Positions 4,093 through 37,432 of a DNA stretch of 64,000 nt are shown here, piece by piece. The DNA lies in contig CAYOOT010000004.1 of NCBI GenBank assembly GCA_964405665.1, positions 8,053 to 72,052 of the forward strand, in the 5' to 3' direction. This DNA comes from an uncultured Bdellovibrionales bacterium (GTDB lineage Bacteria; Bdellovibrionota_C; UBA2361; SZUA-149; CAZDWZ01). The notes below the pieces were generated by a model that saw nothing but the letters and a program-made list of their open reading frames with translations, did not search any database and was not told where the DNA came from. The translations under genes were made by a program, and so were the position numbers. The stretch's first letter is position 1, and every line of letters begins with the position of its first letter.

Positions 4093-4171
4093 GTAGGGGC
4101 ACCCTTTATGGGTGCCCGGTTGACCAATATATTATTTTGGAATTCCGGGCACCCATAAAGGGTGCCCCTAC
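4093..4171. repeat. Palindromic MITE-like element, family A (GTAGGGGCACCCTTTATGGGTGCCCGG ... CCGGGCACCCATAAAGGGTGCCCCTAC)
   Basis: Perfect ~27-bp terminal inverted repeats. Related copies at 21473-21548, 59889-55 and a half-copy at 42123-42150. Lies between convergent genes. Confidence 0.75.
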
Positions 4172-5311: not shown

Positions 5312-5363
5312 AACTCACTCTCAATTAATTATTATTAAAAAATATTGAAAAAGCATCTATGTT

Positions 5364-6143
5364 TTAGCGAATATAGGACATGCCACCATCTATCGGATAA
5401 TAGCAACCTGTTAAAAAGGATGCTTCATCGGAACATAAATACAAAGCAAAGTTTGCCACTTCTTCCGGTTTTGCCATTCTGCCAATTGGAGCAGATTTAG
5501 ATAATTTTTCAAACATTTCTTGTTGATTATCCGGATAATTCTTTTTTAAATAATCATCGACAAAGGGAGTGTGCACTCTTGCCGGACAAATACAATTACA
5601 ACGAATGTGATCATTAATATAATCTTTTGCTACGGAAAGAGTCATTGTAAAAACTGCTCCTTTACTCATTGAATAAGCAAAACGATCTTGTAATCCGACA
5701 TAAGAAGCAATTGAGGCCAGATTTAAAATTACTCCGCCACCATGAGATTTCATCTTGGAAATGCCATACTTTAAACAATTATAAACTCCCTTAACATTTA
5801 CAGAAAATACCTTATCAAAATCTTCTTCGCTGGTATCTTCAGCTTTTCCGATATTGGAAATGCCGGCATTATTAACCAAAATATTTATTTTCGATGTTTT
5901 AGAACAAATTTCATCAAATACTTTTTTTACTTCAGCTTGATTACTCACATCACAACCTAGACAAAAAGCTTTTCCTCCTTTTTCTCTAATCCCCGCAGCA
6001 ACTTTTTCCCCTTCTTCTTTATTCCTTTCCACCACCACCACTTCTGCCCCATTGGTCGCAAAAACCTCAGCTATCGCTTTTCCAATCCCCGACCCCGCTC
6101 CTGTAACAACGGCAACTTTGTTATCAAGTCTAAAATTTGTCAT
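5364..6143 (-). CDS. Short-chain dehydrogenase/reductase (SDR), NAD(P)-dependent
   Basis: TGAGSGIGKAIA Rossmann motif, NNAG motif, catalytic YxxxK (YSMSK). Confidence 0.8.
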   Translation of the reverse strand: MTNFRLDNKVAVVTGAGSGIGKAIAEVFATNGAEVVVVERNKEEGEKVAAGIREKGGKAFCLGCDVSNQAEVKKVFDEICSKTSKINILVNNAGISNIGKAEDTSEEDFDKVFSVNVKGVYNCLKYGISKMKSHGGGVILNLASIASYVGLQDRFAYSMSKGAVFTMTLSVAKDYINDHIRCNCICPARVHTPFVDDYLKKNYPDNQQEMFEKLSKSAPIGRMAKPEEVANFALYLCSDEASFLTGCYYPIDGGMSYIR

Positions 6144-6350
6144 ATATCCAAATACTTAATGGTTATTAAATCGGCTTTTACTTCTACTTTATCTTTATCA
6201 AAGCATTCCACTTAATACAAACAACACAAAAAATTATCTGCAATTCTTACAGTTTTATGATTGACCAATTTGCCTATTAAGTTTATTCTCTTTAAAGTTT
6301 AAATCTAAAGATTTTTAGTACTTAAGAACCATATTAACAAGTCAGCGCTT

Positions 6351-6981: not shown

Positions 6982-8319
6982 CTAGTCAATCACATACTCT
7001 TTCAACTTATTCAACAAAGTCTTATAGCTCACTCCCAAAATTTTTGCTGCCTTAGATTTATTTCCTTTGGTCTGTTGCATAATTGTTAAAATAGCTTTTA
7101 TTTCTGCTTCTTTCGTTGCCAAAGCAGAAATATCATGAAGACTGGGTTGAAACACCTCTTCAAAGTTGGTTTTCTCTAAATTAAAAGCTTCAGGTAAAAG
7201 CTCCTTTGGAGAAAAAATCATTGCTCTTTCAATTGCATTTTCTAACTCTCGGACATTTCCGGGCCAATCATATTGCATTAAAAATTTCAGGGTTTCCTTG
7301 GAAATAATTGGCAAATCTACTTTCAATTCAGCAGCAAGAAGTTTTATGAAATAACTAAGCAATAAAGGAATATCGTCTTTTCTCTCTCTTAATGGAGGAA
7401 TTTCAAAAACCATTACACTTAAACGATAAAATAAATCTGCACGAAATTTGCCACTTTTAATGTCAGATTCTAAATTGGAATTTGTTGCGGAAATGACCCG
7501 AGAATTGATTTTTATTGTAGAATTTCCTCCCACTCTTTTTATTTCAGATTCCTGCAATGTTCTTAAAAGCTTTACCTGCAACTCCAGCGGCATGTTCCCG
7601 ATTTCATCGAGAAAAATTGAACCGTTACTGGATATTTCAAAAAGTCCAATTCTTCTTTCACTTGCTCCGGTAAATGCTCCCGGCTCATAGCCAAAAAACT
7701 CACTTTCTAAAAGATCCTTGGGAGTTGACCCACAATTAACGGCAACAAAAGCTTCTTCCGCCCTAATCCCTTGCTCATGAATAAAACGAGCAAGCATATC
7801 TTTCCCTACTCCGCTTTCTCCGAGAATCAAAACAGGAGTGCTCAGTGAAGCAACTTTTAAAGCCTGCTTCAGTATTCCCTCTAATTTATTATCTTGCGTA
7901 ATTAATCTCCTTTGCACTTTTCTTTTGCGAAGCATTAAATTTCGATCAATTACTCGATGATGCTCAATCACTTGAGCAATCATGTTGCATAAAGCCACAG
8001 GATCAAAAGGCTTAGTAACAAAATCAATTGCGCCATGCTTCATTGCTTGTACAGCAATCGGAATATCGCCATAGGCAGTCATCAAAACAATGGGCACTTT
8101 TTTATTAATCAGCTTGCTATCTTTGATAAAATCTATTCCACTTTTCTGGGGAAGTTTGAGATCGGTTAACACTAAGCTAAATTCATCGGTCTTGAATATA
8201 TCTAGCGCTTCTTCAGCAGAAGAAGTGGAAGTAACTAAATAGCCCTCAGAACTGAGAACTGTAGTGAGCACCTCTCTTAGGGAGTCAGTATCTTCGATTA
8301 AAAGGATATTATTGGACAT
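6982..8319 (-). CDS. Sigma-54-dependent two-component response regulator (NtrC/AtoC family: receiver + AAA+ sigma54-interaction + Fis-type HTH)
   Basis: Receiver LIEDTD...DLKLP. Walker A GESGVGKD, GAFTGA sigma-54 contact motif, C-terminal HTH AAKILGVSYKTLLNKLKEY. Confidence 0.85.
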   Translation of the reverse strand: MSNNILLIEDTDSLREVLTTVLSSEGYLVTSTSSAEEALDIFKTDEFSLVLTDLKLPQKSGIDFIKDSKLINKKVPIVLMTAYGDIPIAVQAMKHGAIDFVTKPFDPVALCNMIAQVIEHHRVIDRNLMLRKRKVQRRLITQDNKLEGILKQALKVASLSTPVLILGESGVGKDMLARFIHEQGIRAEEAFVAVNCGSTPKDLLESEFFGYEPGAFTGASERRIGLFEISSNGSIFLDEIGNMPLELQVKLLRTLQESEIKRVGGNSTIKINSRVISATNSNLESDIKSGKFRADLFYRLSVMVFEIPPLRERKDDIPLLLSYFIKLLAAELKVDLPIISKETLKFLMQYDWPGNVRELENAIERAMIFSPKELLPEAFNLEKTNFEEVFQPSLHDISALATKEAEIKAILTIMQQTKGNKSKAAKILGVSYKTLLNKLKEYVID

Positions 8320-8391: not shown

Positions 8392-8853
8392 TTATTTTAG
8401 TAATTTCGAAGCTTCTTGTAATGCTTCTTGATAGATGTTCTTTAAAGGCAAATTAAGTTTATTGGCAACTTCTTCACAACTTATATATTCTGGAGCGATA
8501 TTTAAGATTTTCCCCTGTAAATTTTTTCCCAATTTTACTTTTATCAAGCCATATTTGGTATTTACTTTAACTATTTCTCTTTGTAGTTCATAACGCGTTA
8601 CGGTCTGTCTCCTTAAACCAATTGTTGTTGTTTCTTGGAAAAAAATATCCATTAATTTTTCAACAAAATTTTCTTCACAGAGAGCATGAAGCGTATTTGC
8701 CGGACGTCCATGCTTCATAATTACAGGAGTAATCCAGGCATCTTTGGCTCCGGCAGCTAATAATTTGTTAATTGCATAAGGAAATTGCTCCGGATTCATA
8801 TCATCGATATTGCATTCTAAGAGCTCTAGAGTTATTCTATCGTAATTATTCAT
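8392..8853 (-). CDS. LarC-family (DUF111, nickel-pincer cofactor insertion protein) C-terminal-region homologue, stand-alone 153 aa
   Basis: ECNIDDMNPE...LLAAGAKDAWITPVIMKHGRPANTLHALC...FQETTTIGLRRQTVTRYELQREI resembles the middle/C-terminal part of LarC. No N-terminal part is nearby. Confidence 0.45.
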   Translation of the reverse strand: MNNYDRITLELLECNIDDMNPEQFPYAINKLLAAGAKDAWITPVIMKHGRPANTLHALCEENFVEKLMDIFFQETTTIGLRRQTVTRYELQREIVKVNTKYGLIKVKLGKNLQGKILNIAPEYISCEEVANKLNLPLKNIYQEALQEASKLLK

Positions 8854-8912
8854 TGAATAAATTTTAAAGACATTGGCATTAAATTAATTATTATATTTTT
8901 AAAAGGTTTAAG

Positions 8913-9782
8913 ATGCAAATTCGAAAAGCAGTAATCCCTGCCGCTGGTTTAGGAACACGTTTTTTACCAGCTACCAAAGCCGTTCCCAAAGAACTTTTAC
9001 CAATTGTTGATACGCCGACAGTACAATATATTGTAAAAGAAGCAGTCGATTCTGGAATTGAAGATATTATTTTTGTAACAGGTCGAGGCAAAAATGCCTT
9101 AATCGATCATTTTGATTCGTATCCAGAGCTAGAAGACAAACTCGAAAAAGAAGGGAAATACGATCTTCTTGCCGCCCTTAAAGAAACTTCCAATATGGCA
9201 AAAATAGTATCAGTAAGACAACCGGAACCTAAGGGCTTGGGAGATGCTGTGCTTTGTGCCAAAGATTTAATTGGCGATGAACCTTTTGCTGTTTTATTGG
9301 GCGATGATTTGGTTGATGCAACAGTACCTTGCACGAAACAAATGATTGATGTCTTTAACAAATATAATAAATCAGTTGTTGCACTAATGAGAGTTCCTGA
9401 TGATGAAGTACCGCGTTTTGGGATCTGTGGTGGACACTCTACGGAAGAAAGGGTGTTCATGCTAGACACAATGGTTGAAAAGCCTAGCCTACACGAAGCG
9501 CCCTCAAATCTGGCGATTGTCGGACGTTATATTTTAAAACCATCAATTTTTAAATATTTGCAAGAAACACAAGTCGGTAAAGGTGGCGAATTACAACTCA
9601 CCGATGCCATGGAAAGAATGATGAAAGTAGAAGGATTTATTGGCTATGAGTTTACCGGAAATCGTTATGATGCTGGAGACAAATTTGGCTTTATTCAAGC
9701 TTGCATTGCTTATGGCTTAAAACGTCGAGACATTGCTCCTCGCTTAAAAGCTTATATGGCTGAGCTCGTTGGTCAAAATTAA
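8913..9782 (+). CDS. galU: UTP--glucose-1-phosphate uridylyltransferase
   Basis: MQIRKAVIPAAGLGTRFLPATKAVPKELLPIVD is the canonical GalU N-terminus; length 289 aa. Confidence 0.85.
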   Translation: MQIRKAVIPAAGLGTRFLPATKAVPKELLPIVDTPTVQYIVKEAVDSGIEDIIFVTGRGKNALIDHFDSYPELEDKLEKEGKYDLLAALKETSNMAKIVSVRQPEPKGLGDAVLCAKDLIGDEPFAVLLGDDLVDATVPCTKQMIDVFNKYNKSVVALMRVPDDEVPRFGICGGHSTEERVFMLDTMVEKPSLHEAPSNLAIVGRYILKPSIFKYLQETQVGKGGELQLTDAMERMMKVEGFIGYEFTGNRYDAGDKFGFIQACIAYGLKRRDIAPRLKAYMAELVGQN

Positions 9783-12800: not shown

Positions 12801-15519
12801 TGAAGATTTGGCTTCATTTCATAAAGGCGTTTTAATGGAGCATTTGGCTATCAGCAGAAAGGGATCCCGCTTAGTCGAGGATTTTTCTGCAGTAGAAAAA
12901 CAATGCCAAAATGTCAAAGAAAATGTTTTAAAACTTGACGCCGCATTAAGAGCCGGAGAATTTCAACAAAAACCTGATAGCGAAGACTGCACTTATTGTA
13001 AATTTAAAAATATTTGTCAAAGAAATGAAACCTTAATTAAGATTAAAAGCAATCATCAAGAAATTAAAAAAGAACAGCGTATTTTCGAAAAAAGCGTTCT
13101 TGAATTTTTAGAGCATGAAAAAAACAATAAGGAACTTATCGCCTTGTCCGCTGAACAAGAAGCGGCCTGTGATATCAATCATAATATTGCTCTGATTGCC
13201 GCTGCCGGTTCCGGGAAAACAACCGTTCTGATCAGAAGAATCATTAAATTGATTTTGGCAGGAGAAAGTATTCTCTCAATTGTTGCAATTACCTATACAG
13301 AAAAAGCTGCAGAAGAAATCAAGCAACGACTGAGTTCGGCAATAAATACAATATTAGAATATAATTCCCTGGCGGGCCAACAAATTACTAACAGTGAAAG
13401 AGAGTTTTTAATTTCAGCAAAAAGTTTGCTGCCTTTAGCTCCGATTGGCACAATTCATTCTTTTGCCGGAATCCTTTTGGGACTTGATCCTTTGATCGCC
13501 AAAAGTCCATTTTCTTTTAAAATTGTTACTGGAGAAGAAAGAAAGAAAATTGCCCAAGCGGCCATTGAAAAAGTTCTTCAAAAAAATCCTAAAAATTTGT
13601 TAATTAAGTTATTAAACTTCGGCCTCTCCTGGAGAAATATCGAATCAGAGCTTGCTCATTTAATGCTTTTACCACGGGATTTATTTGCACTAAATAGAAC
13701 TTACAAGGATCCTCTAATATTAAAAAATATTTTAGAAAAACTGAGTACTGAAACTGAAAACCCGGAACTTAATAAACAAGGGCTGGAAATTGCAGAATGC
13801 TTTTGCGAGCTTGCAGAGTATACTTATCAAAAATACCTGGAGTTAAAGAAGGAAGAAGCTGTGCTGGATTTTGATGATTTGATAATTTCAGCAAAAGAAT
13901 GTTTAAGTAATAATAGTTCAAAACGAATTGCTTTACTTAAAGAAAGAAGCACGAAATTATTTCGACATTTCTTAGTTGATGAGTTTCAAGATACTGATTC
14001 TTATCAATGGGAAATTATTAAAAATATCGCTTCAGAAATTTTCTCTCAGAAAAAAACAAAACCCAAGGAAAATTTAAGGCAAACCATTTTAATTGTCGGC
14101 GATCCTCAACAGGCAATTTATGGATTTAGAGGAGGAGATTCCAGTATTTTTCAACAAGCAATTTCCGAGTTTAAATCAGTAGGCGGTAAATTGCTTTTTC
14201 TGAGAAATAATTATCGTTCGGAAGAAAACCTGATTAATTTTTACAATTCTTACTTTAGTGAGCTGTTTTCCTGCGATTTTTTTGAAGATGCTAGTTCTCG
14301 GGTCAGCACAGCCACTTCTTATGAAGAAATGTATACTTCGCAAAAAAGCGCCGATACTCAAATTAACAATGTCTCATTTCTTTTAAAAGATCCTGAAATG
14401 AATATTGACGAAGCCGCGTATCTTGCTAGTTTTTTAAAAAAATATCTTGCAGAAAACCCTGCTACAGAAAATATTGCTATTCTTTGTCGAAAAAATGATC
14501 ATCTGGAAAAGATTGCCAGTCAATTGGATTTACAAAATATTGATTATAATATCACCCAAAGTAATCGCACTCTGGAATTAAATGAAATTAAGCAATTAGA
14601 AAATTTGCTTAAGTATTTATATAATCCCCAAGATAGTATTGCCTTAGTCGGTCTTTTGCGTTCAACAATTTTTGGTTTTAGCGATCAAGACTTGTTCTTA
14701 TTTTATCAAGAACTGCAGGATTCTTGGGAAATTAAAGAAGAATATCTGAAAACGGCAATATTTCTTAATGCAGCCCAAAAACTGGCTCATTGGAAAAATC
14801 TTAACAAATATCTTAGCGCGTCCGATCTTTTAAAACATATTATCCAAGAACAAAATCTGGAAGATGTTTATCTACAAGCCAATGAAACCGCTGCTTATAA
14901 AAATATCACAATGTTTATCGATACACTTTCTCGTGAAGGAAAAAATGCTCTAGTTGGACCCGCCGTTAGCGATGTCTTAAGTTGGTTAGAATTAAAAAGC
15001 AGTAGTAATTTTCAACTTTTTGTCAATAAAGAAAATCAGAAAATTTCCTTAATGACAATTCACAATGCCAAAGGTTTAGAATTTGATTTAGTAATTCTTG
15101 CCTATATGAATTATCGTTTGCCACCGGAACATGATTTTGTAATTGGTGAATACGCAACAAACAAATTGTTGGGAATAAAAGTTGAAGATGATGAGGATAG
15201 TTTTAGCAGAGCAAAAACTCCTCTACAAAATCTGATTGAGCAATCTTCAACAGCCTTAATTTGTGCTGAAGAAAGACGTTTGTTTTATGTCGCTTGCACC
15301 AGAGCAAAGAAAAGTTTACTTTTCTCTTTTGATCAAAGGAAAGGATTTTTAGGTAATCAAAAAAAGGTAAAGGCACTTTCGCTAAGTAATCGAAAAACAA
15401 ATGCTTTTTTGAAATCCAACCCCTACTATTGGTTTGAACAGCTTCTAGACTATGAAAATCCCTCCTTTACCTTAGCTAACCCCTTGAAAAAACTTAATTT
15501 ACCTGTCATCGAATTATAA
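9874..15519 (+). CDS. Single-chain AddB::AddA-like helicase-nuclease (N-terminal AddB-like inactivated-helicase + RecB-family nuclease with 4-Cys Fe-S site; C-terminal UvrD/AddA-like SF1 helicase without nuclease domain), 1881 aa
   Basis: N-terminal half: IIVDEAS, nuclease motifs DRIDR and IWDYKTG, Cys pattern DCPQKFFFSC ... CTYCKFKNIC (C-x2-C-x5-C as in AddB). C-terminal half: UvrD motifs AAAGSGKTT (I), FLVDEFQDTD (II), IVGDPQQAIYGFRGGD (III), NYRS (IV), TIHNAKGLEFD (V), RRLFYVACTRAK (VI). Continuous ORF across the junction. Start is TTG/GTG-type and uncertain. Confidence 0.6.
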   Translation: MVDIQNIKEKFVWILSETKLRAFEVELFLKKNNKDAEWRSLTVLDGLKNIASSLNQETRTNKPQQAELINSLILEEILNNSEFPELKEELSLVFEESNPNLKLKNLNYLLTAFRNFSNALRIQQNVDSVIKEIIDESGNTLEKKQKIAELIQLSNNLNFKLKERKITDDITSLDNLLLDLNTSKKTNLKLPELIIVDEASSYSKLELEILSQISKYCKIELLIKEPFLQIAELKQKFSFKELLNSLPPSKKHFCSLIYNINRYKNQLSFKEVKNHNQNAEKLIAYLFDSQPLENKDYKFKLPLAIWKNKTPREEVTRLAKSLSNILKNNLAKPEELHLICLDLDEYQPLFEEIFTEYQIPFVVPRGKRLVETTLGNFYLSYLSWFFKPTLLSLEKLCREPLFKIKDFDQPAIFNFISLCKNLGCDNNIFLEDIWENYFLSSFTKKGDSQSLATINWIKSELTENSELLRITGKDFFRKIFRKLNRFRCKFKKGLLAQNQVLKERAFLAATAQKTKILLKELSENTYFESSDFNKLGIEKSVFSENLILEKLKSEFLPLVYEEEKIIVSEMLDSRGLSGKLNIVLAPSFENFPAKNLKQQFSNEYDELSYKIQETSGNNSSIYESYSLIANLISNSRELVFSFSSLSKNKETKPADFLFLLAKQIKENKNLNSPEILKDYSVEFPKKFNNNPDQQKSIEQLLSKQTNYFTAYDSFIGAESSSEKIVKQLNKRFLRSSAEPEDQIAHYSVSSLETFADCPQKFFFSCLLGLEESIEPAKILAIETGNVVHTCLKKIFSLDSYKTITAENFGPACKDLLEIAEREFENNPYDWNLNYKWRYAKNLIIQGLDQDSETSKRGYLKAALFYNKQLIKSIPDQLEWNFGKDSESPALKIIEDQRELRVLGKIDRIDRTDRNKNSEVAAIWDYKTGAITPYNKVEKGKSLQIPLYALAVKQNIAPYTLPKRGAIFSLKQTNRNDEDLASFHKGVLMEHLAISRKGSRLVEDFSAVEKQCQNVKENVLKLDAALRAGEFQQKPDSEDCTYCKFKNICQRNETLIKIKSNHQEIKKEQRIFEKSVLEFLEHEKNNKELIALSAEQEAACDINHNIALIAAAGSGKTTVLIRRIIKLILAGESILSIVAITYTEKAAEEIKQRLSSAINTILEYNSLAGQQITNSEREFLISAKSLLPLAPIGTIHSFAGILLGLDPLIAKSPFSFKIVTGEERKKIAQAAIEKVLQKNPKNLLIKLLNFGLSWRNIESELAHLMLLPRDLFALNRTYKDPLILKNILEKLSTETENPELNKQGLEIAECFCELAEYTYQKYLELKKEEAVLDFDDLIISAKECLSNNSSKRIALLKERSTKLFRHFLVDEFQDTDSYQWEIIKNIASEIFSQKKTKPKENLRQTILIVGDPQQAIYGFRGGDSSIFQQAISEFKSVGGKLLFLRNNYRSEENLINFYNSYFSELFSCDFFEDASSRVSTATSYEEMYTSQKSADTQINNVSFLLKDPEMNIDEAAYLASFLKKYLAENPATENIAILCRKNDHLEKIASQLDLQNIDYNITQSNRTLELNEIKQLENLLKYLYNPQDSIALVGLLRSTIFGFSDQDLFLFYQELQDSWEIKEEYLKTAIFLNAAQKLAHWKNLNKYLSASDLLKHIIQEQNLEDVYLQANETAAYKNITMFIDTLSREGKNALVGPAVSDVLSWLELKSSSNFQLFVNKENQKISLMTIHNAKGLEFDLVILAYMNYRLPPEHDFVIGEYATNKLLGIKVEDDEDSFSRAKTPLQNLIEQSSTALICAEERRLFYVACTRAKKSLLFSFDQRKGFLGNQKKVKALSLSNRKTNAFLKSNPYYWFEQLLDYENPSFTLANPLKKLNLPVIEL

Positions 15520-27715: not shown

Positions 27716-28009
27716 ATGCCGCTAAAAAATTTCAAGGATAACCCGATAGCAAAAGATCTTCAGGACCCTAGCTTTGCTGTAGAATATCTAGAAGAAGCTT
27801 TAAATGAAGATGTACAAGATTTTCTGATTGCTCTTCGAAATGTTGCCGATGCCAACGGTGGATTAAGTAAGCTCTCAAAGGTCTCTAAACTTGGAAGAGA
27901 AAGTCTTTACAAAACTCTTGCTCAAGATAGAAATACCAGTCCTTATTTTGCTACAATTTATCAAATACTTAATGCCTTAGGGATGAAATTTTCTATTCAA
28001 ATAAAATAA
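27716..28009 (+). CDS. Putative addiction-module antidote protein (HTH, HigA-like); apparently orphan
   Basis: 97 aa; FAVEYLEEALNEDVQDFLIALRNVADANGGLSKLSKVSKLGRESLYKTL matches the 'probable addiction module antidote' family. No killer gene immediately upstream. Confidence 0.5.
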   Translation: MPLKNFKDNPIAKDLQDPSFAVEYLEEALNEDVQDFLIALRNVADANGGLSKLSKVSKLGRESLYKTLAQDRNTSPYFATIYQILNALGMKFSIQIK

Positions 28010-28194
28010 AACTCCCTCATAGTGACAGTAAACTCCAATATATTCTGATCCTTATATTTTTCAGATAATCTGAACGTATCAAAAAAAATCAGCGAATATA
28101 ACGTTTATCAAGATTTAATTTAACAAAATTGAATTTTTATAAAATATCTTGACAATACATATAGGAATAATTACTATAGGAATTATTACCATAG

Positions 28195-28566
28195 ATGGAA
28201 AAATATAAGCTTAAGGACTTTCATAGGTGGGCAAAAAAAGAAGGGCTTTCTAATAACGATCTCCTCCGAACTTCAGAAGAAATGTCTAAAGGATTATTGG
28301 GAGATAGATTAGGAGCTTACATATTTAAGAAAAGAATTGGTATTGCAAATAAAGGAAAGCGAAGTGGATTAAGAACCATCATAGTTTATAGAGACAATGA
28401 ATTTGCTATATTTATTTATGGATATGCAAAAAACGAAAAAAGCGACCTCGAACCAAAAGAACAAGCAGCTCTTAGAATTTTTGCAAAAGAACTGATTAAA
28501 TTATCGAAGGTAGAAAGAATGAAAAAAGAACAAGAAGGAATATTAATTAAGATAGTGGAAGAATAA
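28195..28566 (+). CDS. Type II toxin, RelE/HigB-like (DUF1044-type)
   Basis: 123 aa, basic; LKDFHRWAKKEGLS...GKRSGLRTII...AIFIYGYAKNEKSDL pattern. Immediately followed (3-nt gap) by an HTH antitoxin gene. Confidence 0.5.
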   Translation: MEKYKLKDFHRWAKKEGLSNNDLLRTSEEMSKGLLGDRLGAYIFKKRIGIANKGKRSGLRTIIVYRDNEFAIFIYGYAKNEKSDLEPKEQAALRIFAKELIKLSKVERMKKEQEGILIKIVEE

Positions 28567-28568
28567 AC

Positions 28569-28883
28569 ATGAAACGTAAATCACTTTCTCAAACATTAGT
28601 AATGGCTGCCAAAGATTTGGGCTTTCAAAAAGCAACCATTGATAAATTGGAATCTTTAAATGTTCCCGAAGTTAGGCGTTTAACTGCAAAAGATATAAGG
28701 CGTATCAGAAAAAAAATGAATGCTAGTCAGGGAGTGTTTGCTAAGTATCTAAATGTAAATCCTTCAACTTTACAAAAATGGGAACAAGGTGCAATTAGTC
28801 CGCAAAATACAGCATTAAAACTTCTTAATTTGATAGATGATTTAGGGGTTGAAATATTGTTAGCTGCCAAAATTTCAAGATAA
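28569..28883 (+). CDS. HTH XRE-family antitoxin (HigA/NadS-like)
   Basis: 104 aa; ...ASQGVFAKYLNVNPSTLQKWEQGAISPQNTALKLL helix-turn-helix. Translationally coupled to the upstream toxin. Confidence 0.6.
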   Translation: MKRKSLSQTLVMAAKDLGFQKATIDKLESLNVPEVRRLTAKDIRRIRKKMNASQGVFAKYLNVNPSTLQKWEQGAISPQNTALKLLNLIDDLGVEILLAAKISR

Positions 28884-29346: not shown

Positions 29347-29373
29347 GTAAGCGGACTTTAGTCCGCTTATTAC
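29347..29373. terminator. Perfect palindrome AAGCGGACTTTAGTCCGCTT (repeat-family half-site) acting as a bidirectional hairpin terminator
   Basis: 9-bp stem with 2-nt loop, followed by A/T-rich sequence. Sits between convergent gene ends (29299 + and 29382 -). Same motif recurs at 41951-41978. Confidence 0.5.
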
Positions 29374-29381: not shown

Positions 29382-30506
29382 TCACACCATCTCCAAATTC
29401 GCCCTGGGAATTAAAACTTCTTCCTTATTTTCCAATCTGATTTTTGCGACCCGCACTTCCGCTCCGGTGGCAATTACTTGTGGTTCATGCGGCAGATCCA
29501 ATACTTCAGCAAACATTCCAAAATAAGGAACTCTGATTACCCGGACTTTGGAACCAACATTAAGTAAACCAATTTCATCTTTTGTTTGATCTCTTAATGA
29601 AGAATCGTTATGGGGAATAATTAATTCCGGACGCATTGCGCCGGCACGAATTTGAGTAGCACCACTAACGGAAGCAAATTTCCCGTTAAATTTCTTAGCA
29701 AGTTCGGTAATTCTTTGAGAAATTGCAAGCGATCCGAAGCCTTCCGTAATAATTAAAGTAAAGGGAAGAACTTCATCTCCGGTAATGGAAACTCCGATTT
29801 CATAACCTAAAAATTCATGCAGAGTATCTGCCTCAATGGAACCGGTAATTACAGCACTGATTTCTTGTTCAGCGCAAAATTTTAGTGCTGCTTTGGAAAA
29901 ACCCATTCCCCCAATTAAAATTTTATTTTTTAGTTTTCCTTGATATTTTTCCAAATCCGTCTTTTCAATTAAATCAGTAACCGCTTTTTCCAAAACAAAA
30001 ACCTCACCACTTTTTTCAGAGCCCACACCAAATATCCCTTGAATAAAAGTTCCTGTTGTTTGAATGCTCACTGTTTTTTCTTCCTCCAACTCCAAGACTT
30101 CTCCCCCAATATAAGCATTAACTGACAATTGTTCCGACTTTTGTCTGATTCCCAAGTGGGCATTGGATTCCGTAAAAAATTCCACCTTTCCTGCAGAGCT
30201 GGATTTTAATTCCTCTTTGAACCAGGAAAAAAGCCCGGATACTTCGCAGAGAAGATCTCCTACTTTGACTTCGTCTCCCACCTTCACTTTCATTCCTTCT
30301 AGCACTCGCTCTACATCATAACCTAAACGATCGGCTATTCGGATAATATCAAGTTCTCCGGGAAGTTCCGCAGAAAGAACGATGGTAGAAGATTGGACCT
30401 GCTCACCTTTTTTAACCAGGACTTTACCTTTTAAAGGAAGTTCTCTTGTTTTAAGAATTGTTTTATAGGCCGATATTTCAAGTCCTGGAGTGTATGCTTT
30501 ACTCAT
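29382..30506 (-). CDS. Hypothetical protein of operon 29382-36143 (375 aa from MSKAYTPG start; possible barrel-sandwich/lipoyl-like segment KVKVGDEVKVGDLLCE)
   Basis: ORF 29382..30551. The internal ATG at 30504-30506 overlaps the upstream gene stop by 8 nt (ATGAGTAA), suggesting coupling. Confidence 0.45.
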   Translation of the reverse strand: MSKAYTPGLEISAYKTILKTRELPLKGKVLVKKGEQVQSSTIVLSAELPGELDIIRIADRLGYDVERVLEGMKVKVGDEVKVGDLLCEVSGLFSWFKEELKSSSAGKVEFFTESNAHLGIRQKSEQLSVNAYIGGEVLELEEEKTVSIQTTGTFIQGIFGVGSEKSGEVFVLEKAVTDLIEKTDLEKYQGKLKNKILIGGMGFSKAALKFCAEQEISAVITGSIEADTLHEFLGYEIGVSITGDEVLPFTLIITEGFGSLAISQRITELAKKFNGKFASVSGATQIRAGAMRPELIIPHNDSSLRDQTKDEIGLLNVGSKVRVIRVPYFGMFAEVLDLPHEPQVIATGAEVRVAKIRLENKEEVLIPRANLEMV

Positions 30507-32322
30507 AAACCATGCCCATTTGTTTATACCAAGATTTAATTGCTTCTTCACCCGGGATATCTAGCGGTCGTCCTCTTCCATCAAAAATCAAACCAACCAA
30601 GCCGCCTGATAAAACAGTTTCTACTTCTTTGCCTATCCCTGCTCCAATATTAACTGAGGAATGAAGAGGTTTTAGTTTTGCTTTTATTTCTTTTCCAGTT
30701 TCTAGATCTATTTTTAATAATTCACCAGAATGTAAAATAATTTCCTTAGAATTTTCTAAAGTAATCAGACATAATTCTTTTCCCGGACCTACTTTGCCAG
30801 TCGGTGCAATTACCGTTCCCAATGAAACTAAACAATCTCTAAAAAGTATTTCTGAGGCAGCTTCCAAATGGACATCAGAAAAAACTCCCAAATGAGGCAT
30901 CATAAAAATTGAATCTACTGCTAGTTTAGTTACACCAGTTGGTTGATAACTATCAATCAACATCAATGCGGCGCTGTTTCTGTTAGGAGCATGACTTAAA
31001 ACTCCACCGGAACCGATAATTAAATCAAGTTTCATCATATCAACCAGAGAGTTATTTTCCTGTTTGAACAAATCTCCGATTGCCCGTTGTTTTTTTGCTC
31101 CCTTTAAACCAACGGCTAAGCGTTTATGATGTTCAAAAGCGAGTCTTAATGCTTCCCGACAAATTGCTTGTTCCAAGATTAAATCTTCCATCGTCTGGGG
31201 AATACTGGTCGGACGAATCATCTTGTTGCGCAAACGATCACGCAGTTCATTTTCTGATATTTTAAAAGGCAGCCATCTTAGAATATTTTTCTCTCCCGCT
31301 TCCAACATCACATTGGCTACGGAATAACTCATTCCCAAATTGGCACTGACTGTTCGATTAAAAATCGGTTCTCGATTTTCTTCCTCATTAAAAAAAACGG
31401 AAAAAACATCGGTCGTTGCACCCCCGATATCAACAGCAAGTATTTGCAGTCCGGTTTTTTTGGAAGCATTTAAAACCATTTGCCCTACAGCTGCCGGAGT
31501 GGGAATAATTGGCACCGGGGACCAAGTTAATAATTTTTTATATCCCGGAGCATGGCTCATCACATGATGTAAGAACAATTCATGGATCGCTTCTCTTGCC
31601 GGAGCTAAATTTTCTTTTTCCAAAGTTGGTCTTAAATTGTCCACGGCATGAAAAGAAAATCTTTTTTCTAAAATCCTTTTCGCATCTTCTCTAGCTAAGG
31701 AATTTGCCGCATAAATAATTGGCAATTTCAATGTGTCACCAAATCTAGGTTTAGGATCGGCTTGTAAAATTATTTCAGCAAGTTCCAAAGGATGATTAAC
31801 TGTTCCTCCTTCTGTTCCACCGGCAAGGAGCACAATATCCGGCCTTAAATGTCTAATTCTTTGCACCCGCTCATAAGCTTCCCGGCCATCATCAATAGAA
31901 ATTGCATCTAAAACTATCGCTCCTGCTCCGAGCGCCGCCCGCTCAGCAGACTCTGTCGTCATATTTTTTACAACACCGGCAACTACAATCTGTAATCCTC
32001 CGCCAGCAGAACTAGTAGAGACATACAAATCTATACCGTCTTTATCCTCAGCATTTTTTTTAAAACAAAAAGGAATTTCATCTTCCTTTGCCTTTTCATT
32101 TAAAATTTTTCTTCCGGATAATTCCTGAACTTCTAAAAAAGCATTGATCGCACCGATAGTCACATCAGCAACTGGTTTTTCCACAGTAGTCGGAGCTTCT
32201 CCGCGAAAAGTTTGCCTCCAGCCTTGATCCGTTTTTTCAAAAAGCACGGCCTTTGTCGTGGTGGAACCACAATCTGTTGCCAAGACTACTGTCAAATCAT
32301 TGAGATTAATATTTTCTTTCAT
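30499..32322 (-). CDS. ASKHA-superfamily (actin/Hsp70-fold) ATPase, 607 aa (MutL/EutA/hydantoinase-A-like)
   Basis: Phosphate-1 motif VVLATDCGSTTTKAVLF near N-terminus and phosphate-2 motif ILAVDIGGATTDVFSV (D-x-G-G-x-T-T-D) mid-protein. Confidence 0.55.
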   Translation of the reverse strand: MKENINLNDLTVVLATDCGSTTTKAVLFEKTDQGWRQTFRGEAPTTVEKPVADVTIGAINAFLEVQELSGRKILNEKAKEDEIPFCFKKNAEDKDGIDLYVSTSSAGGGLQIVVAGVVKNMTTESAERAALGAGAIVLDAISIDDGREAYERVQRIRHLRPDIVLLAGGTEGGTVNHPLELAEIILQADPKPRFGDTLKLPIIYAANSLAREDAKRILEKRFSFHAVDNLRPTLEKENLAPAREAIHELFLHHVMSHAPGYKKLLTWSPVPIIPTPAAVGQMVLNASKKTGLQILAVDIGGATTDVFSVFFNEEENREPIFNRTVSANLGMSYSVANVMLEAGEKNILRWLPFKISENELRDRLRNKMIRPTSIPQTMEDLILEQAICREALRLAFEHHKRLAVGLKGAKKQRAIGDLFKQENNSLVDMMKLDLIIGSGGVLSHAPNRNSAALMLIDSYQPTGVTKLAVDSIFMMPHLGVFSDVHLEAASEILFRDCLVSLGTVIAPTGKVGPGKELCLITLENSKEIILHSGELLKIDLETGKEIKAKLKPLHSSVNIGAGIGKEVETVLSGGLVGLIFDGRGRPLDIPGEEAIKSWYKQMGMVYE

Positions 32323-32326
32323 CAGA

Positions 32327-33022
32327 TCAACTTATGAATAATGCGACCCACTTATTAATTAAAAAATCCAAACGCTCCACTAACAGAGCCATCCGCGCCA
32401 TTACTGTAGAACCGAAAAAAGCACCGAAACACCCCATCATCATCCATCTTCCGGCATAGGAAACTTTTGTCACCAGGCCATTTTCCTTGCGCTTAAAGGT
32501 AAAAAAGAAATAACTCATCGCTGAAATCATCGTGAACATAAAAACCAGATTACTAAAAGTTTCAAAACTAGAAGCAGGCACATATAGAGGCTTAAATGAA
32601 GCTGTAATCTGCGGCAATAATTCCACAAACATCCCTCTAATTGCCGCTCCGGCAGAAGCACCAAAGGAAAAACCGATTACTAATTGAGCCAGCCAATTAT
32701 ATTTCCGCGACAAAACAAAATAATAAAGTGATCCAAAGAGCATTGGTAAAATTATCAGTAACCTTTGTTTATTATAAGGTTCCAAATAAGTCCCATCGGG
32801 AAATACCACCAAATCTAAACCAAAAAGTGGAACTATCGCTTTTGGCCAAAAAGATTCCTTGAAAACAACAATAATTCCCCAGGAAGTGGCAATCCCAATA
32901 AAGAAATGTTCAAAAAATCTGAAAAAAGCATTCTCTTTATAAAGGAATGAAAATATTGCCAGCGAGCAAATGCCGCCTAAGAAAATTTCAAAAAATTCAA
33001 ATGTGAAATATTGCGTTTCCAT
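32327..33022 (-). CDS. Polytopic membrane protein (231 aa), operon member
   Basis: ORF with ~6 hydrophobic segments; 4-nt gap to upstream gene. Confidence 0.45.
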   Translation of the reverse strand: METQYFTFEFFEIFLGGICSLAIFSFLYKENAFFRFFEHFFIGIATSWGIIVVFKESFWPKAIVPLFGLDLVVFPDGTYLEPYNKQRLLIILPMLFGSLYYFVLSRKYNWLAQLVIGFSFGASAGAAIRGMFVELLPQITASFKPLYVPASSFETFSNLVFMFTMISAMSYFFFTFKRKENGLVTKVSYAGRWMMMGCFGAFFGSTVMARMALLVERLDFLINKWVALFIS

Positions 33023-33922
33023 CTAGGTTTGTTTATTCCTGCGCTCAATTAGATAAGTAATATTTCCTAAAACTATAAATAATAAAATTAGCAGCTGCGC
33101 CACTGCCAGACCGGTATTAGTTGCCGTAGCTAATTCTTCTCTTTGAGGATAATCTTTATTCATTAATTGGTCATACCAAGCTGCGCCAGCAACTCCTTCA
33201 AAGAAACCCAGAATTTGTTTGGAATTGTAATATAAATAAGCTTCAGGAATTGTAATTGAAGTACAGCCATGAAGCATTGGAGGAATATAAGAATCGGTTC
33301 TAAAAAACTGTAGCCAAGTATTAAATGTTCCTACTAAACTTGTGATTTGCACCAAGAGAGAAATATCTTTTAAGGTATGCACCTTTTGCATTAGGGGGAT
33401 TTCTGAAAGAGGAGTTCCCTTATAATCGCTTTTTACTACTTTATGCAGATCTTCGGAGCGGGCAATCGCTTGAATTGACTGCCAACCTCCGGCTTGAAAA
33501 CCAAGATTGACCCAATCCACTCCATATTGCCAATTCTTTTCCGGATTTTCTTTTTTTAAAGTTTTAATTAATTCTAAAGGGAATTCTTGTAAAATCGGAG
33601 CTGCTTGCACATAAATTGTCATCAAGATAAAAGGAATTTTTTTTCTGAATAAATGCTCCATAATGATCTTAGATTGCGGTTCATTTTCAGCCATTGTTCC
33701 TGGTCCAAAATCTAAAGCAATCACCACTGGTTTTTGAGAATTATCCGGTAGAGCTTCCATTACTTTGAAAACATCAGCCGCCGCTTTCATCGGCACTGGT
33801 TTGAAATTAGTTTTAAGAATCATCGGTATTGCCAGGGCCAAGGCCACAAAAAGATAAACTAGCCGGGGATGAATGTTCAATAAATATTTCATTTCGATAA
33901 CAATCCATAAAACATTAAACAT
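33023..33922 (-). CDS. N-terminally anchored, probably periplasmic protein (299 aa), operon member
   Basis: ORF abutting next gene; single N-terminal hydrophobic segment LVYLFVALALAIPMIL then a soluble domain; C-terminal TM. Confidence 0.4.
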   Translation of the reverse strand: MFNVLWIVIEMKYLLNIHPRLVYLFVALALAIPMILKTNFKPVPMKAAADVFKVMEALPDNSQKPVVIALDFGPGTMAENEPQSKIIMEHLFRKKIPFILMTIYVQAAPILQEFPLELIKTLKKENPEKNWQYGVDWVNLGFQAGGWQSIQAIARSEDLHKVVKSDYKGTPLSEIPLMQKVHTLKDISLLVQITSLVGTFNTWLQFFRTDSYIPPMLHGCTSITIPEAYLYYNSKQILGFFEGVAGAAWYDQLMNKDYPQREELATATNTGLAVAQLLILLFIVLGNITYLIERRNKQT

Positions 33923-34040
33923 TCAGAATTATTCCGCAATCGAGGCGTTAAGTTTGTCGAAAAGCGGAGTGTATACTTCGAAACATGAGCATTCTCGACA
34001 AACTTAACAACAAAGAGTGCGGAAAATTGTGAACGTTTAA

Positions 34041-35072
34041 TCATTCTTTTTCCTGTAAGGGAGATCTTTCTAGTGACAACCACATTCTTATCGCCATCGC
34101 TAAACCGGCAATTGCAGCACCAAAGTAAATAGCCCTATTTCCAGGAGTGTTGATATTTTCCATCAGCCAACCACGAATTGCCGGCATCTGCTCGGAAATC
34201 AGCCTTCCTTGAGGAATTTGACCTAAAATTACCAGTATCGCTGTAAGCATCATAATCCCGGCTTCTACAGATTTTACTCTAAAGGAGCGGTAAGCCGCAT
34301 AGGCAATATAAAAAGCAAGAAGTGAAAACATCGAAGTGCTTAAAGGGACAAAAAAACCTTGATACATTAATTTAGAAGATTTTTTAATTGTCAGGTTTTC
34401 ATAATTGAGTTGCAGTAAATCTTTTACTGTAACTGTAAGATCTCTTATCGCCTGCACCAGAATTTCACTTTGTTTCTTTATTTCATCATTATTCTTTTCT
34501 TGAAATTTTGTTTTTAAAAAAGTGGAATATTCTAATAGTTCTTTTTCCTCTTTATTCAATTCATTTTGCAATTTCTGATAAATGATAATTTGTTCAGAAG
34601 TATAATTTTTATTTTGCTGAGGAAGAGAATGGATTTTTTTAACAACAAAATCTTGCAGTAAACTTATTTTTTCAATTTTCTGTTCGGAACTTAAACTGCT
34701 ATCGGAATTTATTTTATTTAAAAATAATTCCTGATCGGCAATCGGTTTCCATTTATTAAGATTGCTTAAAGAGAGGTACATGTCTGTGCCCTGAATAAAA
34801 AGCATCACAAAAAGCCCCAAAATAAGGGCAAAAGAGTTAATCCAAGCTTTTTGCAACTTCAATAATCTGCCGCCATGCACAAAAAGAATATTGATAATTC
34901 CCAAGCCGATGGCCATGTTACCGAGGATTACCAAACCATCCAGGATTTCTTCATGATAATTACCGAATTTGAAACTTCCAATTTCTTTAGGAAGCAGAAA
35001 TTCTAGGAGAAAATATGTCCCTGGAATAAAAGTGATCAAAGCAATTAATTTTCTTCTAAATTTTAAATTCAT
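34041..35072 (-). CDS. Membrane protein with central coiled-coil (343 aa), operon member
   Basis: N-terminal and C-terminal TM clusters. Central region rich in E/K/Q/L heptads (NKEEKELLEYSTFLKTKFQEKNNDEIKKQSEILVQAIRDLT). ATGA overlap with upstream gene. Confidence 0.4.
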   Translation of the reverse strand: MNLKFRRKLIALITFIPGTYFLLEFLLPKEIGSFKFGNYHEEILDGLVILGNMAIGLGIINILFVHGGRLLKLQKAWINSFALILGLFVMLFIQGTDMYLSLSNLNKWKPIADQELFLNKINSDSSLSSEQKIEKISLLQDFVVKKIHSLPQQNKNYTSEQIIIYQKLQNELNKEEKELLEYSTFLKTKFQEKNNDEIKKQSEILVQAIRDLTVTVKDLLQLNYENLTIKKSSKLMYQGFFVPLSTSMFSLLAFYIAYAAYRSFRVKSVEAGIMMLTAILVILGQIPQGRLISEQMPAIRGWLMENINTPGNRAIYFGAAIAGLAMAIRMWLSLERSPLQEKE

Positions 35073-35854
35073 TTTTCAAGTAAGGCTTCAATATGAAGTT
35101 TTTCCAGTTTTTGTTCTTTGATGCTGTAATAAGTAGCTTCTAAAACCCCAATCAAAACCAAAAATAAAACAATTAATTTGGCAAAGTCTTGTCCGCGAAG
35201 ACTTCCTTGCTGCACCGGATCCTTTGATAAATAAGAACTGGCAGCAAATAACTCTTCTCCAATTAAAGTATAATCACAAGAAGCGATAAAAAATGGAATT
35301 TGATGAGTATCGGTAGTGGCGGCAATTTGAACGGCATTAGCCTTTTGTCCGGCTTCTGCCAGGATTAAAGATTCAGCAGCAAAGGAACCAAACAAAAATG
35401 CCGCTCCCACCTTTTCTCTTTCCACTATTCCCATATAACCGGAGGCAAATGCGAATTGCTCACTGGACAAAAATCTAAGGGAAGTGGGATCGTAGACGGC
35501 ATATTTTTTTACTTCCCGGTAAGCATTTTGCAATGTGACGTCGGCAAGGGCCACCGCTTCTGGATCCCCTAAAGGAACAAAAAGTCGGCTGCCATAGTTG
35601 GCAGTTTTTTTGGCGATGTAACTCAAAACCCCAAGACAAGCTGCCAAGAGAGGTCCGATTGAAGTCATTGCCGTAGTAAAAGAAAGTGGCCGTCCTAACT
35701 CTACAGAACGCCCAATTGCCTCATCAATGGCATTGACACCGGGGATTTTTCGAACAAAAATGTCAGTCCCTTTTTTCGCCTTAAAAATAAAATAAAGAAT
35801 CGGGCTTGAAAATAAGGCCAATAAAACCATTACCGAATATGTGGCATGTTCCAT
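35069..35854 (-). CDS. Polytopic membrane protein (261 aa), operon member
   Basis: ORF with N-terminal TM, central amphipathic region and C-terminal TM (LIVLFLVLIGVL). Confidence 0.4.
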   Translation of the reverse strand: MEHATYSVMVLLALFSSPILYFIFKAKKGTDIFVRKIPGVNAIDEAIGRSVELGRPLSFTTAMTSIGPLLAACLGVLSYIAKKTANYGSRLFVPLGDPEAVALADVTLQNAYREVKKYAVYDPTSLRFLSSEQFAFASGYMGIVEREKVGAAFLFGSFAAESLILAEAGQKANAVQIAATTDTHQIPFFIASCDYTLIGEELFAASSYLSKDPVQQGSLRGQDFAKLIVLFLVLIGVLEATYYSIKEQKLEKLHIEALLEK

Positions 35855-35891
35855 AAATTAACCAGTCTTTCTAAATAACTTTCCCATATGG

Positions 35892-36143
35892 TTAAGAACT
35901 CAAACTAGGTGTTTCTATCAATTTGATTAAATGTTGGATATTTTCTCGATTCGCAAGTAAATTTTTATAATCATTAAGTTTTTCGAGACCAAAGAAAGGA
36001 GTAAGAAAAGGTTCAAAGACTAAAAATCCCGTATGAAATAAACTAAGCACCGGCAAATGCATTTGTAAAAATAACAAAGCAGGAAATTCTAATTTTTTTT
36101 CCTTAATTTTTGTTGCTAAATTTTCAATTAAGTCTTCTTTCAA
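35892..36143 (-). CDS. Small hydrophobic protein (83 aa), first gene of operon
   Basis: ORF 37 nt upstream of the next gene on the same strand; preceded by a ~280-bp AT-rich non-coding region. Confidence 0.3.
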   Translation of the reverse strand: MKEDLIENLATKIKEKKLEFPALLFLQMHLPVLSLFHTGFLVFEPFLTPFFGLEKLNDYKNLLANRENIQHLIKLIETPSLSS

Positions 36144-36424
36144 ATTACACCATAATCTGCTCGGAACTTTGCCTGCTTAACTAACAAAATCTATTTCCTA
36201 GCACTACAATAAACAATACTTTTGATAGAAATTATAAAAATATCCTATGGTAGAAAAATTACTAAGATGTTAATATTACAAGTAACTTATACTTGTTGCA
36301 TCAAATAAATTGAAACCCTTGTAAACTATGCTTTTTTTGTTGTAAGGGGCAAACAAGTAGCATGGTTTTTTAGCTCTAAATTTGAACTCAATATACTGAT
36401 TAAATAGACAAAGGCAGCAAAATT

Positions 36425-37432
36425 ATGATTTTTGGCAAAAAAAATAATTCATTAGATGAAGATACTCTCCGAAATGAAACCCATGAACGCTATCGACAAA
36501 CTACTTCTTCAGCTTATAAATCTCCACTGCCTGATCCTTTGGAAAAAGTTGGTGAAGTGAAAATCAAAGGTCAAGCTGAATCAACACCCCAGTGGCCAAA
36601 TCCCCGCGCTAGTATTAAGCCTGAGCAAGAAATAGATCTGCAATCAAACAATCTCCTCTCTGAGGAAGCAGCAATAGAGCCTCTTTACAAACCGATAGTG
36701 AACAGCACGTCTTCCAAACTGGCACAGTTTGTTGCCACAGGTTTAAGTAACGTTGGACTTAAACAACAAAATAAAGTTGCCGAAAACATTAAGCCGCTAG
36801 AAACACCTAAGGTTAATGATTCTTATAAAGCTGCAATCAGCACTGCTTTTGCCAACACCAATGAAAATATCAAATTAACACCGGAAGATGAAATCAAGAA
36901 AAAATACGGATCAAATTTAAAATCAGCACTAGGACTAGGAACTATTATTGAAGGAACTTTTAGTTTTGAAACACCGGTATGCATTGAAGGAACTTTACTT
37001 GGTGAAATTCGCTCCAATAGTTTATTGATTGTTGGTCCGGAAGCCAGTGTCCAAGCAAAAATTAAAGTCGGAAGTTTAGTAGTGTATGGCGTTGTTCGGG
37101 GAGATGTTGAAGCTCAAGAACTGGTTAATATCAAAGAAAACGGAACTTTAGAGGGAAATGTGTTGGCAGAAAAACTTGCCATTGAAGAAGGTGGTTGGTT
37201 TCAAGGTCGTTGCATCCCTAGTGCTCCCTCAAAAATTTTAGAACAATTTAGCCGCAAAAGAAATAAAGAGAATGAGTCTGTGGAATCTCCCAATAACAAT
37301 AAGATCAGTTCCGAAACTAAAGCGACGCAACAAGAATTAAATATTCAAAAACTGCAAACGACTGAAGAAGATAACTTGCTGTTGCCTGAGGATCAAATTG
37401 AATTATCGTCTTTGGAAAAATGGAGCTTATAG
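36425..37432 (+). CDS. Bactofilin-domain (DUF583, CcmA-like) cytoskeletal protein with long disordered N- and C-terminal extensions
   Basis: Core GTIIEGTFSFETPVCIEGTLLGEIRSNSLLIVGPEASVQAKIKVGSLVVYGVVRGDVEAQELVNIKENGTLEGNVLAEKLAIEEGGWFQGRC shows the repetitive beta-helix pattern of bactofilins. Confidence 0.7.
   Translation: MIFGKKNNSLDEDTLRNETHERYRQTTSSAYKSPLPDPLEKVGEVKIKGQAESTPQWPNPRASIKPEQEIDLQSNNLLSEEAAIEPLYKPIVNSTSSKLAQFVATGLSNVGLKQQNKVAENIKPLETPKVNDSYKAAISTAFANTNENIKLTPEDEIKKKYGSNLKSALGLGTIIEGTFSFETPVCIEGTLLGEIRSNSLLIVGPEASVQAKIKVGSLVVYGVVRGDVEAQELVNIKENGTLEGNVLAEKLAIEEGGWFQGRCIPSAPSKILEQFSRKRNKENESVESPNNNKISSETKATQQELNIQKLQTTEEDNLLLPEDQIELSSLEKWSL

Follow-up and report, generated by a model that had tools for sequence, protein, structure and literature searches.

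A 64,000-nucleotide stretch of DNA from an uncultured Bdellovibrionales bacterium, called the window in the following, carries a compact operon of seven genes, g1 to g7 (Table 1), which probably encodes an undescribed cell-envelope machine. Its products are an ASKHA (actin/Hsp70-fold) ATPase (g6), a partner protein (g7), a protein of the DUF6754 family (g2), and four further membrane or small proteins (g1, g3, g4, and g5). A sequence-only reading of this DNA had put the operon forward as a candidate for a new envelope-associated machine, and the proposal is supported, neither homology to a known system nor a lack of co-conservation having been found. The conclusion follows from the retention of the set in several poorly studied phyla, together with the failure to find a characterised match.

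Conservation of the gene set

For each GTDB species one genome was scanned with an alignment of g7. This returned 80 related loci, all metagenome-assembled and labelled as Bdellovibrionota/Oligoflexia, Binatia, Dadabacteria, Thermodesulfobacteriota, Syntrophobacterales, unclassified Deltaproteobacteria or Pseudomonadota, and, in one case, Planctomycetota. Nearly every locus with enough upstream DNA presents g2 to g7 in the same order (tblastn), and g1 was detected in 45 loci. Identity to the window proteins is 57-71% for g6, 51-65% for g2, 48-64% for g5, 38-54% for g7, 36-58% for g4, 30-46% for g3, and 26-46% for g1, and the median intergenic distances are -1 to -11 nt. The neighbourhood check suggested by the earlier reading thus found g2 to g7 co-conserved across the loci, and the absence of co-conservation did not occur. 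Since the same gene set recurs in over 80 independent loci, a chance association is excluded. When all open reading frames (ORFs) of 84 loci were clustered, no family beyond the seven occurred in more than 40 of them, antisense shadow ORFs aside.

Some lineages carry additional genes beside or within the operon. An Opp/Dpp-type ATP-binding cassette (ABC) peptide transporter, comprising an SBP_bac_5 protein and two permeases, one of which is fused to an ATPase, directly follows g7 in L034 (11275-17079, plus strand) and in about 20 other loci, mostly labelled Binatia; because it is confined to this Binatia-type lineage, it was rejected as a component of the system. Between g5 and g6, L042 encodes a 173-aa protein with a hydrophobic N-terminal segment (7460-7981, plus strand), four other Binatia-labelled loci have a similar gap of 0.6-0.9 kb, and L085 contains three small genes (14061-15311, plus strand). 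The lineage-specific insertions in L042 and L085 indicate that the g5-g6 junction tolerates insertions.

The ATPase and its partner

The g6 protein matches the Pfam family MutL/GlmL (PF13941) over residues 13-496 at 406 bits (cut-off 27, E 2.5e-121). The phosphate-1 (LATDCGSTTTKA) and phosphate-2 (DIGGATTD) motifs quoted for the ATPase in the sequence-only reading are present, at D17-C-G-S-T-T-T-K24 and D298-I-G-G-A-T-T-D305, and are joined by an adenosine motif, G437-S-G-G440. All three are invariant in alignments of 58 and 29 orthologues, and 199 of the 607 positions are at least 97% conserved among the 58. By analogy with characterised ASKHA proteins, the role of g6 is probably that of an ATP-driven conformational switch acting on a partner protein. 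Sequence and profile searches of the PDB with g6 detected no relative, and Pfam adds a faint match to Hydantoinase_A (E 0.044).

Public annotations name g6 orthologues "glutamate mutase L." Together with the strong Pfam match, these labels would favour an ordinary GlmL/MutL-type reactivase or chaperone of a B12-dependent mutase, comparable to the related ASKHA reactivases EutA and DdrA, with unrelated genes as its neighbours. This explanation is highly improbable. The g6 scores fall under all the NCBIfam cut-offs (NF040745 GlmL, 220.8 against 475, less than half; NF040744, the ornithine-pathway Or-4, 207.7 against 600; TIGR01319, 165.9 against 204.05) and mark the protein as a distinct subfamily rather than a GlmL equivalog. 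In addition, g6 differs from GlmL in a poorly conserved C-terminal extension of about 110 aa past the Pfam domain, beyond residue 496; GlmL, at about 460 aa, is about 150 aa shorter. The Pfam-annotated neighbourhoods contain no B12-binding or mutase family, and no cobalamin riboswitch occurs in the window or in seven of the loci, so that a link to B12 mutases was rejected. Instead, g6 is strictly co-conserved with six other proteins, g7 being its constant partner and four membrane proteins accompanying it in most cases.

The actin/Hsp70 fold predicted for g6 would also suit a membrane-tethered cytoskeleton, in which g6 polymerises like MreB, ParM, or FtsA and is anchored by the membrane proteins, perhaps with a bactofilin. 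The conservation of g6 across loci is comparable with that of MreB or DnaK, and in the window, as in nine related loci, a bactofilin gene is transcribed divergently from the spacer that lies upstream of the operon. However, this adjacency is limited to one Bdellovibrionota clade, for which reason bactofilin was rejected as a partner of the system, and the g6 score against MreB-like_C is 16.9, far under the cut-off of 27.8. Moreover, the MutL/GlmL family is counted with those enzymes of the actin superfamily that do not polymerise (PMC5597319). A filament-forming g6, a possibility raised in the earlier reading, gained no support and is considered quite unlikely.

The partner protein g7 adjoins g6 in 83 of the 84 loci, and is predicted to be cytoplasmic and translationally coupled to g6. 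Its length had been given as 375 aa, one residue more than is counted from the overlapping ATG (Table 1). The AlphaFold model (predicted local distance difference test, pLDDT, 87.9) comprises four domains, which are barrel-sandwich-hybrid-like, β-barrel, Rossmann-like, and KOW/SH3-like. Foldseek against the PDB matched single domains only (Thermotoga NusG domain II, 2xhc, E 3.5e-6, and the Spt5 KOW domain), with weak Foldseek or profile matches to NqrA (8acw_A, probability 0.12) and V-ATPase A. The Rossmann-like domain includes the invariant motifs TEGFG and GATQxRAG. A profile of the C-terminal half found nothing significant in the PDB, including RnfC, NqrA, and NuoF, and the Pfam scores against RnfC_N (13.8, cut-off 25.6) and NQRA_N (13.4, cut-off 25) are low.

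The segment of g7 that had been read as possibly lipoyl-like, KVKVGDEVKVGDLLCE, is present and barrel-sandwich-hybrid-like, but it has no conserved modifiable lysine: the position after LLCE is K in most orthologues and S in the window protein. A role as a biotin or lipoyl carrier was rejected because of this and because the Biotin_lipoyl score (21.9 bits) lies under the cut-off of 22.1.

The membrane proteins

Topologies were predicted by alignment-based hydropathy and positive-inside analysis (30 orthologues in the case of g3). The five proteins other than g6 and g7 had been described as polytopic or anchored in the membrane, and of these g3 and g5 are polytopic; g2 and g4 are not, each being a soluble domain between two transmembrane (TM) helices, and g1 possibly does not span the membrane at all.

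The g2 protein belongs to DUF6754 (PF20539; 270.3 bits, cut-off 27, E 1.7e-80), a family without an assigned function. Its AlphaFold model (pLDDT 88.5) places a Rossmann-like α/β domain between an N-terminal TM helix and a long C-terminal one, and Foldseek against the PDB returned generic Rossmann matches only. Both termini are predicted to lie outside and the Rossmann-like domain in the cytoplasm, which leaves about 5 N-terminal and 16 C-terminal residues of the window protein outside the membrane. Independent support for this arrangement comes from a cleavable-looking signal peptide ahead of TM1 in one relative and from the fusions at the outward termini of many others, in which PQQ-type β-propellers precede the domain or PKD/Ig domains follow it; He_PIG is also found among these ectodomains. 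At least 90% of the near set and all nine distant homologues conserve 44 positions, many of them polar, which include R35, E52, R146, E147, E161, C193-D194-Y195-T196, E200, E201, D223, and K226. The publicly called DUF6754 product P0241 (253 aa) begins 8 codons downstream of the ATG at 35854 (35831-35854) and omits the N-terminus MEHATP; as this is conserved in 36 homologues, the 261-aa form is probably correct.

Variable ectodomains (PQQ-type β-propeller, PKD, or He_PIG) joined to a strongly conserved cytoplasmic domain are what might be expected of a transmembrane sensing or anchoring device. In such a device g2 and g3-g5 would sense or hold an external structure, and g6 and g7 would serve as an ATP-dependent switch or regulator and not as a transport motor. 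Some distant versions of the operon also have OmpA-like, pilin-like, or two-component genes as neighbours, which point in the same direction. However, g2 of the window has no ectodomain, none of the seven proteins contains a signalling output domain recognised by Pfam or NCBIfam, and the neighbouring envelope genes vary by lineage. A device of this kind is improbable.

The polytopic g3 has six TM helices and, between TM3 and TM4, a helical insert of about 140 aa that is predicted to be periplasmic. The insert is 137-165 aa long and Cys-free in the orthologues, conserved in length and poorly so in sequence, and it is missing from distant homologues of 208-275 aa. A match to LptF_LptG (E 0.0042, 16.6 bits, cut-off 27.9) mostly covers this low-complexity insert. 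In g5, the hydropathy scan called five TM segments and a sixth (about residues 108-130) was read by eye; the invariant charged or polar set is E30, N31, R35, E38, H39, D76, R192, R210, E216, and R217.

The g4 protein is predicted to have both termini inside and a periplasmic domain of about 225 aa between its N- and C-terminal TM helices. D71, G73, E79, H90, W137, N139, H218-G219, and T221-S222 are invariant in the orthologues, and no match was found in Pfam, NCBIfam, or the PDB. The small protein g1 carries the motif PA..FLE..KPL...P...PLFG...R.N.E.LI..IE in its 45 homologues from the related loci; because charged residues are conserved within its hydrophobic stretch, g1 may not span the membrane. 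Searches of Pfam, NCBIfam, PADLOC, and PHROGs gave no significant match for g1, g3, g4, or g5, and comparisons with hhalign revealed no homology between g7 and g2, g4 and g2, or g5 and g3.

Distant versions and modular structure

An exhaustive profile search for DUF6754 yielded 2357 representative clusters (50% identity), 916 of them at E <=1e-30, with many proteins of 400-1300 aa; the source labels of some relatives are Vulcanimicrobiota, Candidatus Brocadiia, and Abditibacteriales. When the neighbourhoods of distant relatives were scanned with hidden Markov models of the seven families, the same components were found in permuted order. L086 has the order g2'-g3'-g4'-g5'-x-g1'-g6'-g7'; its g6' and g7' share 52% and 39% identity, respectively, with their window counterparts, and its g3' has no helical insert. 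The order is g1'-g2'-g3'-g4'-g5'-g6' in L091, where g5' carries a 500-aa insertion in a loop predicted to be periplasmic, and g6'-x-g7'-g2'-g3'-g4'-g5'-OmpA-like-g2'' in L092, whose DUF6754 protein is labelled Brocadiia. L090 contains g7'-g2'-g3'-g4'-g5', and L088, L093, and L094 contain g2'-g3'-g4'-g5' alone. Homologues of g1 occur at differing positions in L086, L089, and L091.

The persistence of the set through these permutations is read as a stronger sign of functional linkage than synteny alone. The permutations also resolve two modules, one of membrane proteins (g2-g5) and one cytoplasmic (g6-g7, with g1), and g7 is found next to either; in L090 and L092 it immediately adjoins the membrane genes, as expected of a bridging subunit. 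The predicted extracytoplasmic parts are hypervariable (0-150 aa for the g3 insert, 500 aa for the g5 insertion, 150-1000 aa for the g2 extensions). Judged from these alignments and topologies, the conserved elements are the cytoplasmic ones, and the parts outside the membrane vary widely.

Some distant versions are accompanied by other envelope genes. The version in L086 is immediately preceded by a tandem pair of genes (8753-9763, plus strand), each encoding 141 aa with a prepilin-type N-terminal methylation domain (PF07963), an OmpA-like gene stands inside the version in L092, and a MacB/FtsX ABC pair lies upstream of that in L094.

Relation to known systems

The finding of the earlier reading that the operon matches no characterised system stands after comparison with Pfam, NCBIfam, PADLOC, PHROGs, PDB profiles, and, for two models, Foldseek. 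Among the seven proteins, family matches in the first four libraries were limited to g6 (MutL) and g2 (DUF6754). PDB sequence and profile searches with g2 to g7 gave nothing significant, and the Foldseek check that had been advised, made on the AlphaFold models of g2 and g7, returned only generic, domain-level matches. Full-text literature searches found no papers on DUF6754, PF13941, or TIGR01319, and broader searches on GlmL/ASKHA proteins, EutA and reactivases, and the Kuenenia complexome found none that describes the operon. Given these failed membership tests, the broad Pfam families MutL and DUF6754 excepted, and the lack of a literature description, the system is rated as lying outside every known kind, and its function is a prediction from sequence. 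An origin in anti-phage defence or a mobile element was rejected: the seven proteins have no PADLOC match at E <=0.1, no relatives were found on viral contigs, and the flanks are housekeeping genes.

Several known assemblies resemble the predicted architecture. Like the ABC-type envelope machines LptB2FGC, MlaFEDB, LolCDE, and MacAB, the system combines a cytoplasmic ATPase and an accessory protein with two six-TM subunits and a TM-anchored periplasmic domain, and in the window lineage it has a long periplasmic helical element. Unlike them, its energising protein would be of the ASKHA fold; none of the seven proteins matches ABC_tran, no significant homology was found, and the PDB profile searches made in this connection were empty or gave coiled-coil noise.

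A second resemblance is to Rnf and Na+-NQR, where RnfC and NqrA, like g7, begin with a barrel-sandwich-hybrid domain and continue with a Rossmann-like one; g7 also has faint RnfC_N and NQRA_N matches. These complexes likewise contain polytopic subunits, a peripheral subunit on the cytoplasmic side, and TM-anchored domains in both the cytoplasm and the periplasm. By contrast, all the matches are sub-cut-off, no Fe-S, flavin, or NADH-binding motifs were recognised, and an ATPase would take the place of the redox input.

Finally, in MreB-MreC-MreD, FtsA, PilM-PilN-PilO, and GspL an ASKHA-fold protein is also genetically coupled to bitopic or polytopic membrane proteins, one of them with a coiled-coil periplasmic segment. 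However, these ASKHA proteins are of another family, their membrane partners are non-homologous to those described here, and pilin-like genes accompany one distant locus only.

Proposed mechanism

The undescribed envelope machine proposed here may take the form of one inner-membrane complex that is driven or gated by the cytoplasmic ASKHA ATPase and its partner and acts on the envelope; the chances of this are judged to be about even. The cytoplasmic module would consist of the ATPase g6 and its partner g7, probably also with g1, and the membrane module would comprise g2, with its Rossmann-like domain at the cytoplasmic face, the six-TM proteins g3 and g5, and the periplasmic domain of g4. Binding and hydrolysis of ATP would switch the conformation of g6, as in Hsp70-type and reactivase-type ASKHA proteins. 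Through g7 and the cytoplasmic domain of g2 the change would be relayed to g3 and g5 in the membrane and to g4 and the helical insert of g3 in the periplasm, where a component of the envelope or surface would be moved, inserted, or remodelled by the complex.

Several points weigh against a single complex of this kind. Physical assembly, the direction of energy coupling, and the envelope substrate are inferred only, and the analysis of the seven proteins and their neighbourhoods gave no clue to a substrate. We know of no ASKHA ATPase that energises a transporter, so that the analogy is without precedent. The characterised relatives of g6 are only soluble accessory proteins of B12 enzymes, whose activity has been inferred rather than proven. 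The two modules can also stand apart. No membrane genes lie near the g6-g7 pair in L003/L004, L040, and L072, for each of which at least about 8 kb of upstream sequence is available, or in L053, for which about 4 kb is; conversely, in L093 and L094 neither g6 nor g7 is found up to 10 kb from g2-g5, and the shorter contig L088 has neither. In L072, on the complete Binatia chromosome OZ241976.1, a 1445-aa ORF and unrelated genes take the place of the membrane genes upstream of g6-g7 (1918-6255, minus strand), which suggests that a rearrangement separated the two modules.

The same separations of the cytoplasmic from the membrane module favour an enzyme plus a transporter. According to this alternative, g6 and g7 form a soluble ATP-dependent enzyme or small-molecule-activating system resembling the hydantoinase, oxoprolinase, and acetone carboxylase branch of ASKHA proteins, and g1-g5 form a separate system that takes up or exports its substrate or product, the link between them being only metabolic. 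The faint Hydantoinase_A match of g6 is in keeping with it, and the invariant TEGFG and GATQxRAG motifs of g7 could be catalytic. However, a simple secondary carrier would not resemble this membrane module, which has four or five subunits and conserved domains on both its cytoplasmic and its periplasmic side. The membrane genes of L090 and L092 have g7 as their direct neighbour, and no metabolic genes are co-conserved. In addition, the large and variable β-propeller and PKD ectodomains of g2 relatives suggest contact with a surface macromolecule and not small-molecule uptake. An enzyme with its own transporter is considered rather unlikely.

A broader form of the envelope-machine reading is offered tentatively, as possible rather than probable. 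The operon would then represent a new class of primary-active envelope machine, in which a four-subunit inner-membrane complex, powered by an ASKHA ATPase together with its barrel-sandwich-hybrid partner, serves to export, insert, or remodel some component of the cell surface. The class would be spread across Bdellovibrionota, Binatia, Dadabacteria, Desulfobacterota, Planctomycetota, Vulcanimicrobiota, and Abditibacteriota, and would differ from systems run by ABC, AAA+, P-type, or rotary ATPases in having the ASKHA fold as its driver.

If the seven proteins do form one machine, g6 would be, to our knowledge, the first Hsp70/actin-fold ATPase to energise or gate a dedicated multi-subunit membrane complex, and would add a new motor type to the few that drive bacterial envelope processes. 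A first functional context would also be given to DUF6754, to four unnamed families, and to hundreds of genes misleadingly annotated as "glutamate mutase L." With 916 DUF6754 clusters at the stricter threshold, the system is not limited to one genome.

Organisation of the locus

The seven minus-strand genes were confirmed as a compact operon with the boundaries originally proposed (Table 1). Short or overlapping junctions, described earlier for the whole operon, occur at g2/g3 (a 4-nt overlap, ATGA), g4/g5 (directly abutting), g5/g6 (a gap of 4 nt), and g6/g7 (an 8-nt overlap, ATGAGTAA, in which the g7 start ATG lies within the overlap with the g6 stop), but not at g3-g4. The g3-g4 spacer, which would extend to 148 nt with g4 beginning at M11, contains a 9-bp inverted repeat; since g3 and g4 overlap in orthologous loci, it may represent either an insertion at this locus or a regulatory hairpin inside the operon.

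Table 1. Features of the operon and its flanks, in positions of the window
Feature	Position	Strand	Length	Description
g1	35892-36143	minus	83 aa	small conserved protein; TTG start
g2	35069-35854	minus	261 aa	DUF6754 protein
g3	34041-35072	minus	343 aa	six-TM protein
g3-g4 spacer	33923-34040	minus	118 nt	9-bp inverted repeat GTTTGTCGA...TCGACAAAC
g4	33023-33922	minus	299 aa	likelier start M11 at 33892, giving 289 aa
g5	32327-33022	minus	231 aa	probably six TM helices
g6	30499-32322	minus	607 aa	MutL/GlmL-family ASKHA-fold ATPase
g7	29382-30506	minus	374 aa	cytoplasmic partner of g6
Hairpin	29348-29369	minus		perfect 9-bp hairpin, 4-nt loop; probable transcript end
Divergent spacer	36144-36424		281 bp	AT-rich, between g1 and the bactofilin gene; presumed operon promoter region
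Bactofilin gene	36425-37432	plus		PF04519, E 3.5e-24
Antidote gene	27716-28009	plus		HI1420-type antidote protein
Toxin gene	28195-28566	plus		RelE-family toxin
Antitoxin gene	28569-28883	plus		HTH_3/MqsA-like antitoxin

The AT-rich upstream region of about 280 bp and the perfect downstream hairpin reported earlier are both there. The former has about 27-29% GC, and its consensus promoter-like sites are on the plus strand only; an Rfam scan gave no match within it and no riboswitch in the window or in the seven loci. The hairpin, TAAGCGGAC-TAAA-GTCCGCTTA, begins 13 nt past the g7 stop codon (fold -17.3 kcal/mol, z = -2.9), and because no T-run follows, it was not listed by a terminator scan.

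Housekeeping genes flank the operon, which occurs in several phyla represented almost solely by metagenomes. In the window, rplS and cinA lie beyond the bactofilin gene, which diverges from the operon across the spacer. The same bactofilin/rplS/cinA flank stands beside the operon in L001 and L085, and bactofilin alone in L005, L007, L008, L010-L012, and L016; it was not detected in other lineages. Just downstream of the operon, the window carries the toxin-antitoxin genes listed in Table 1 (27716-28883, plus strand).

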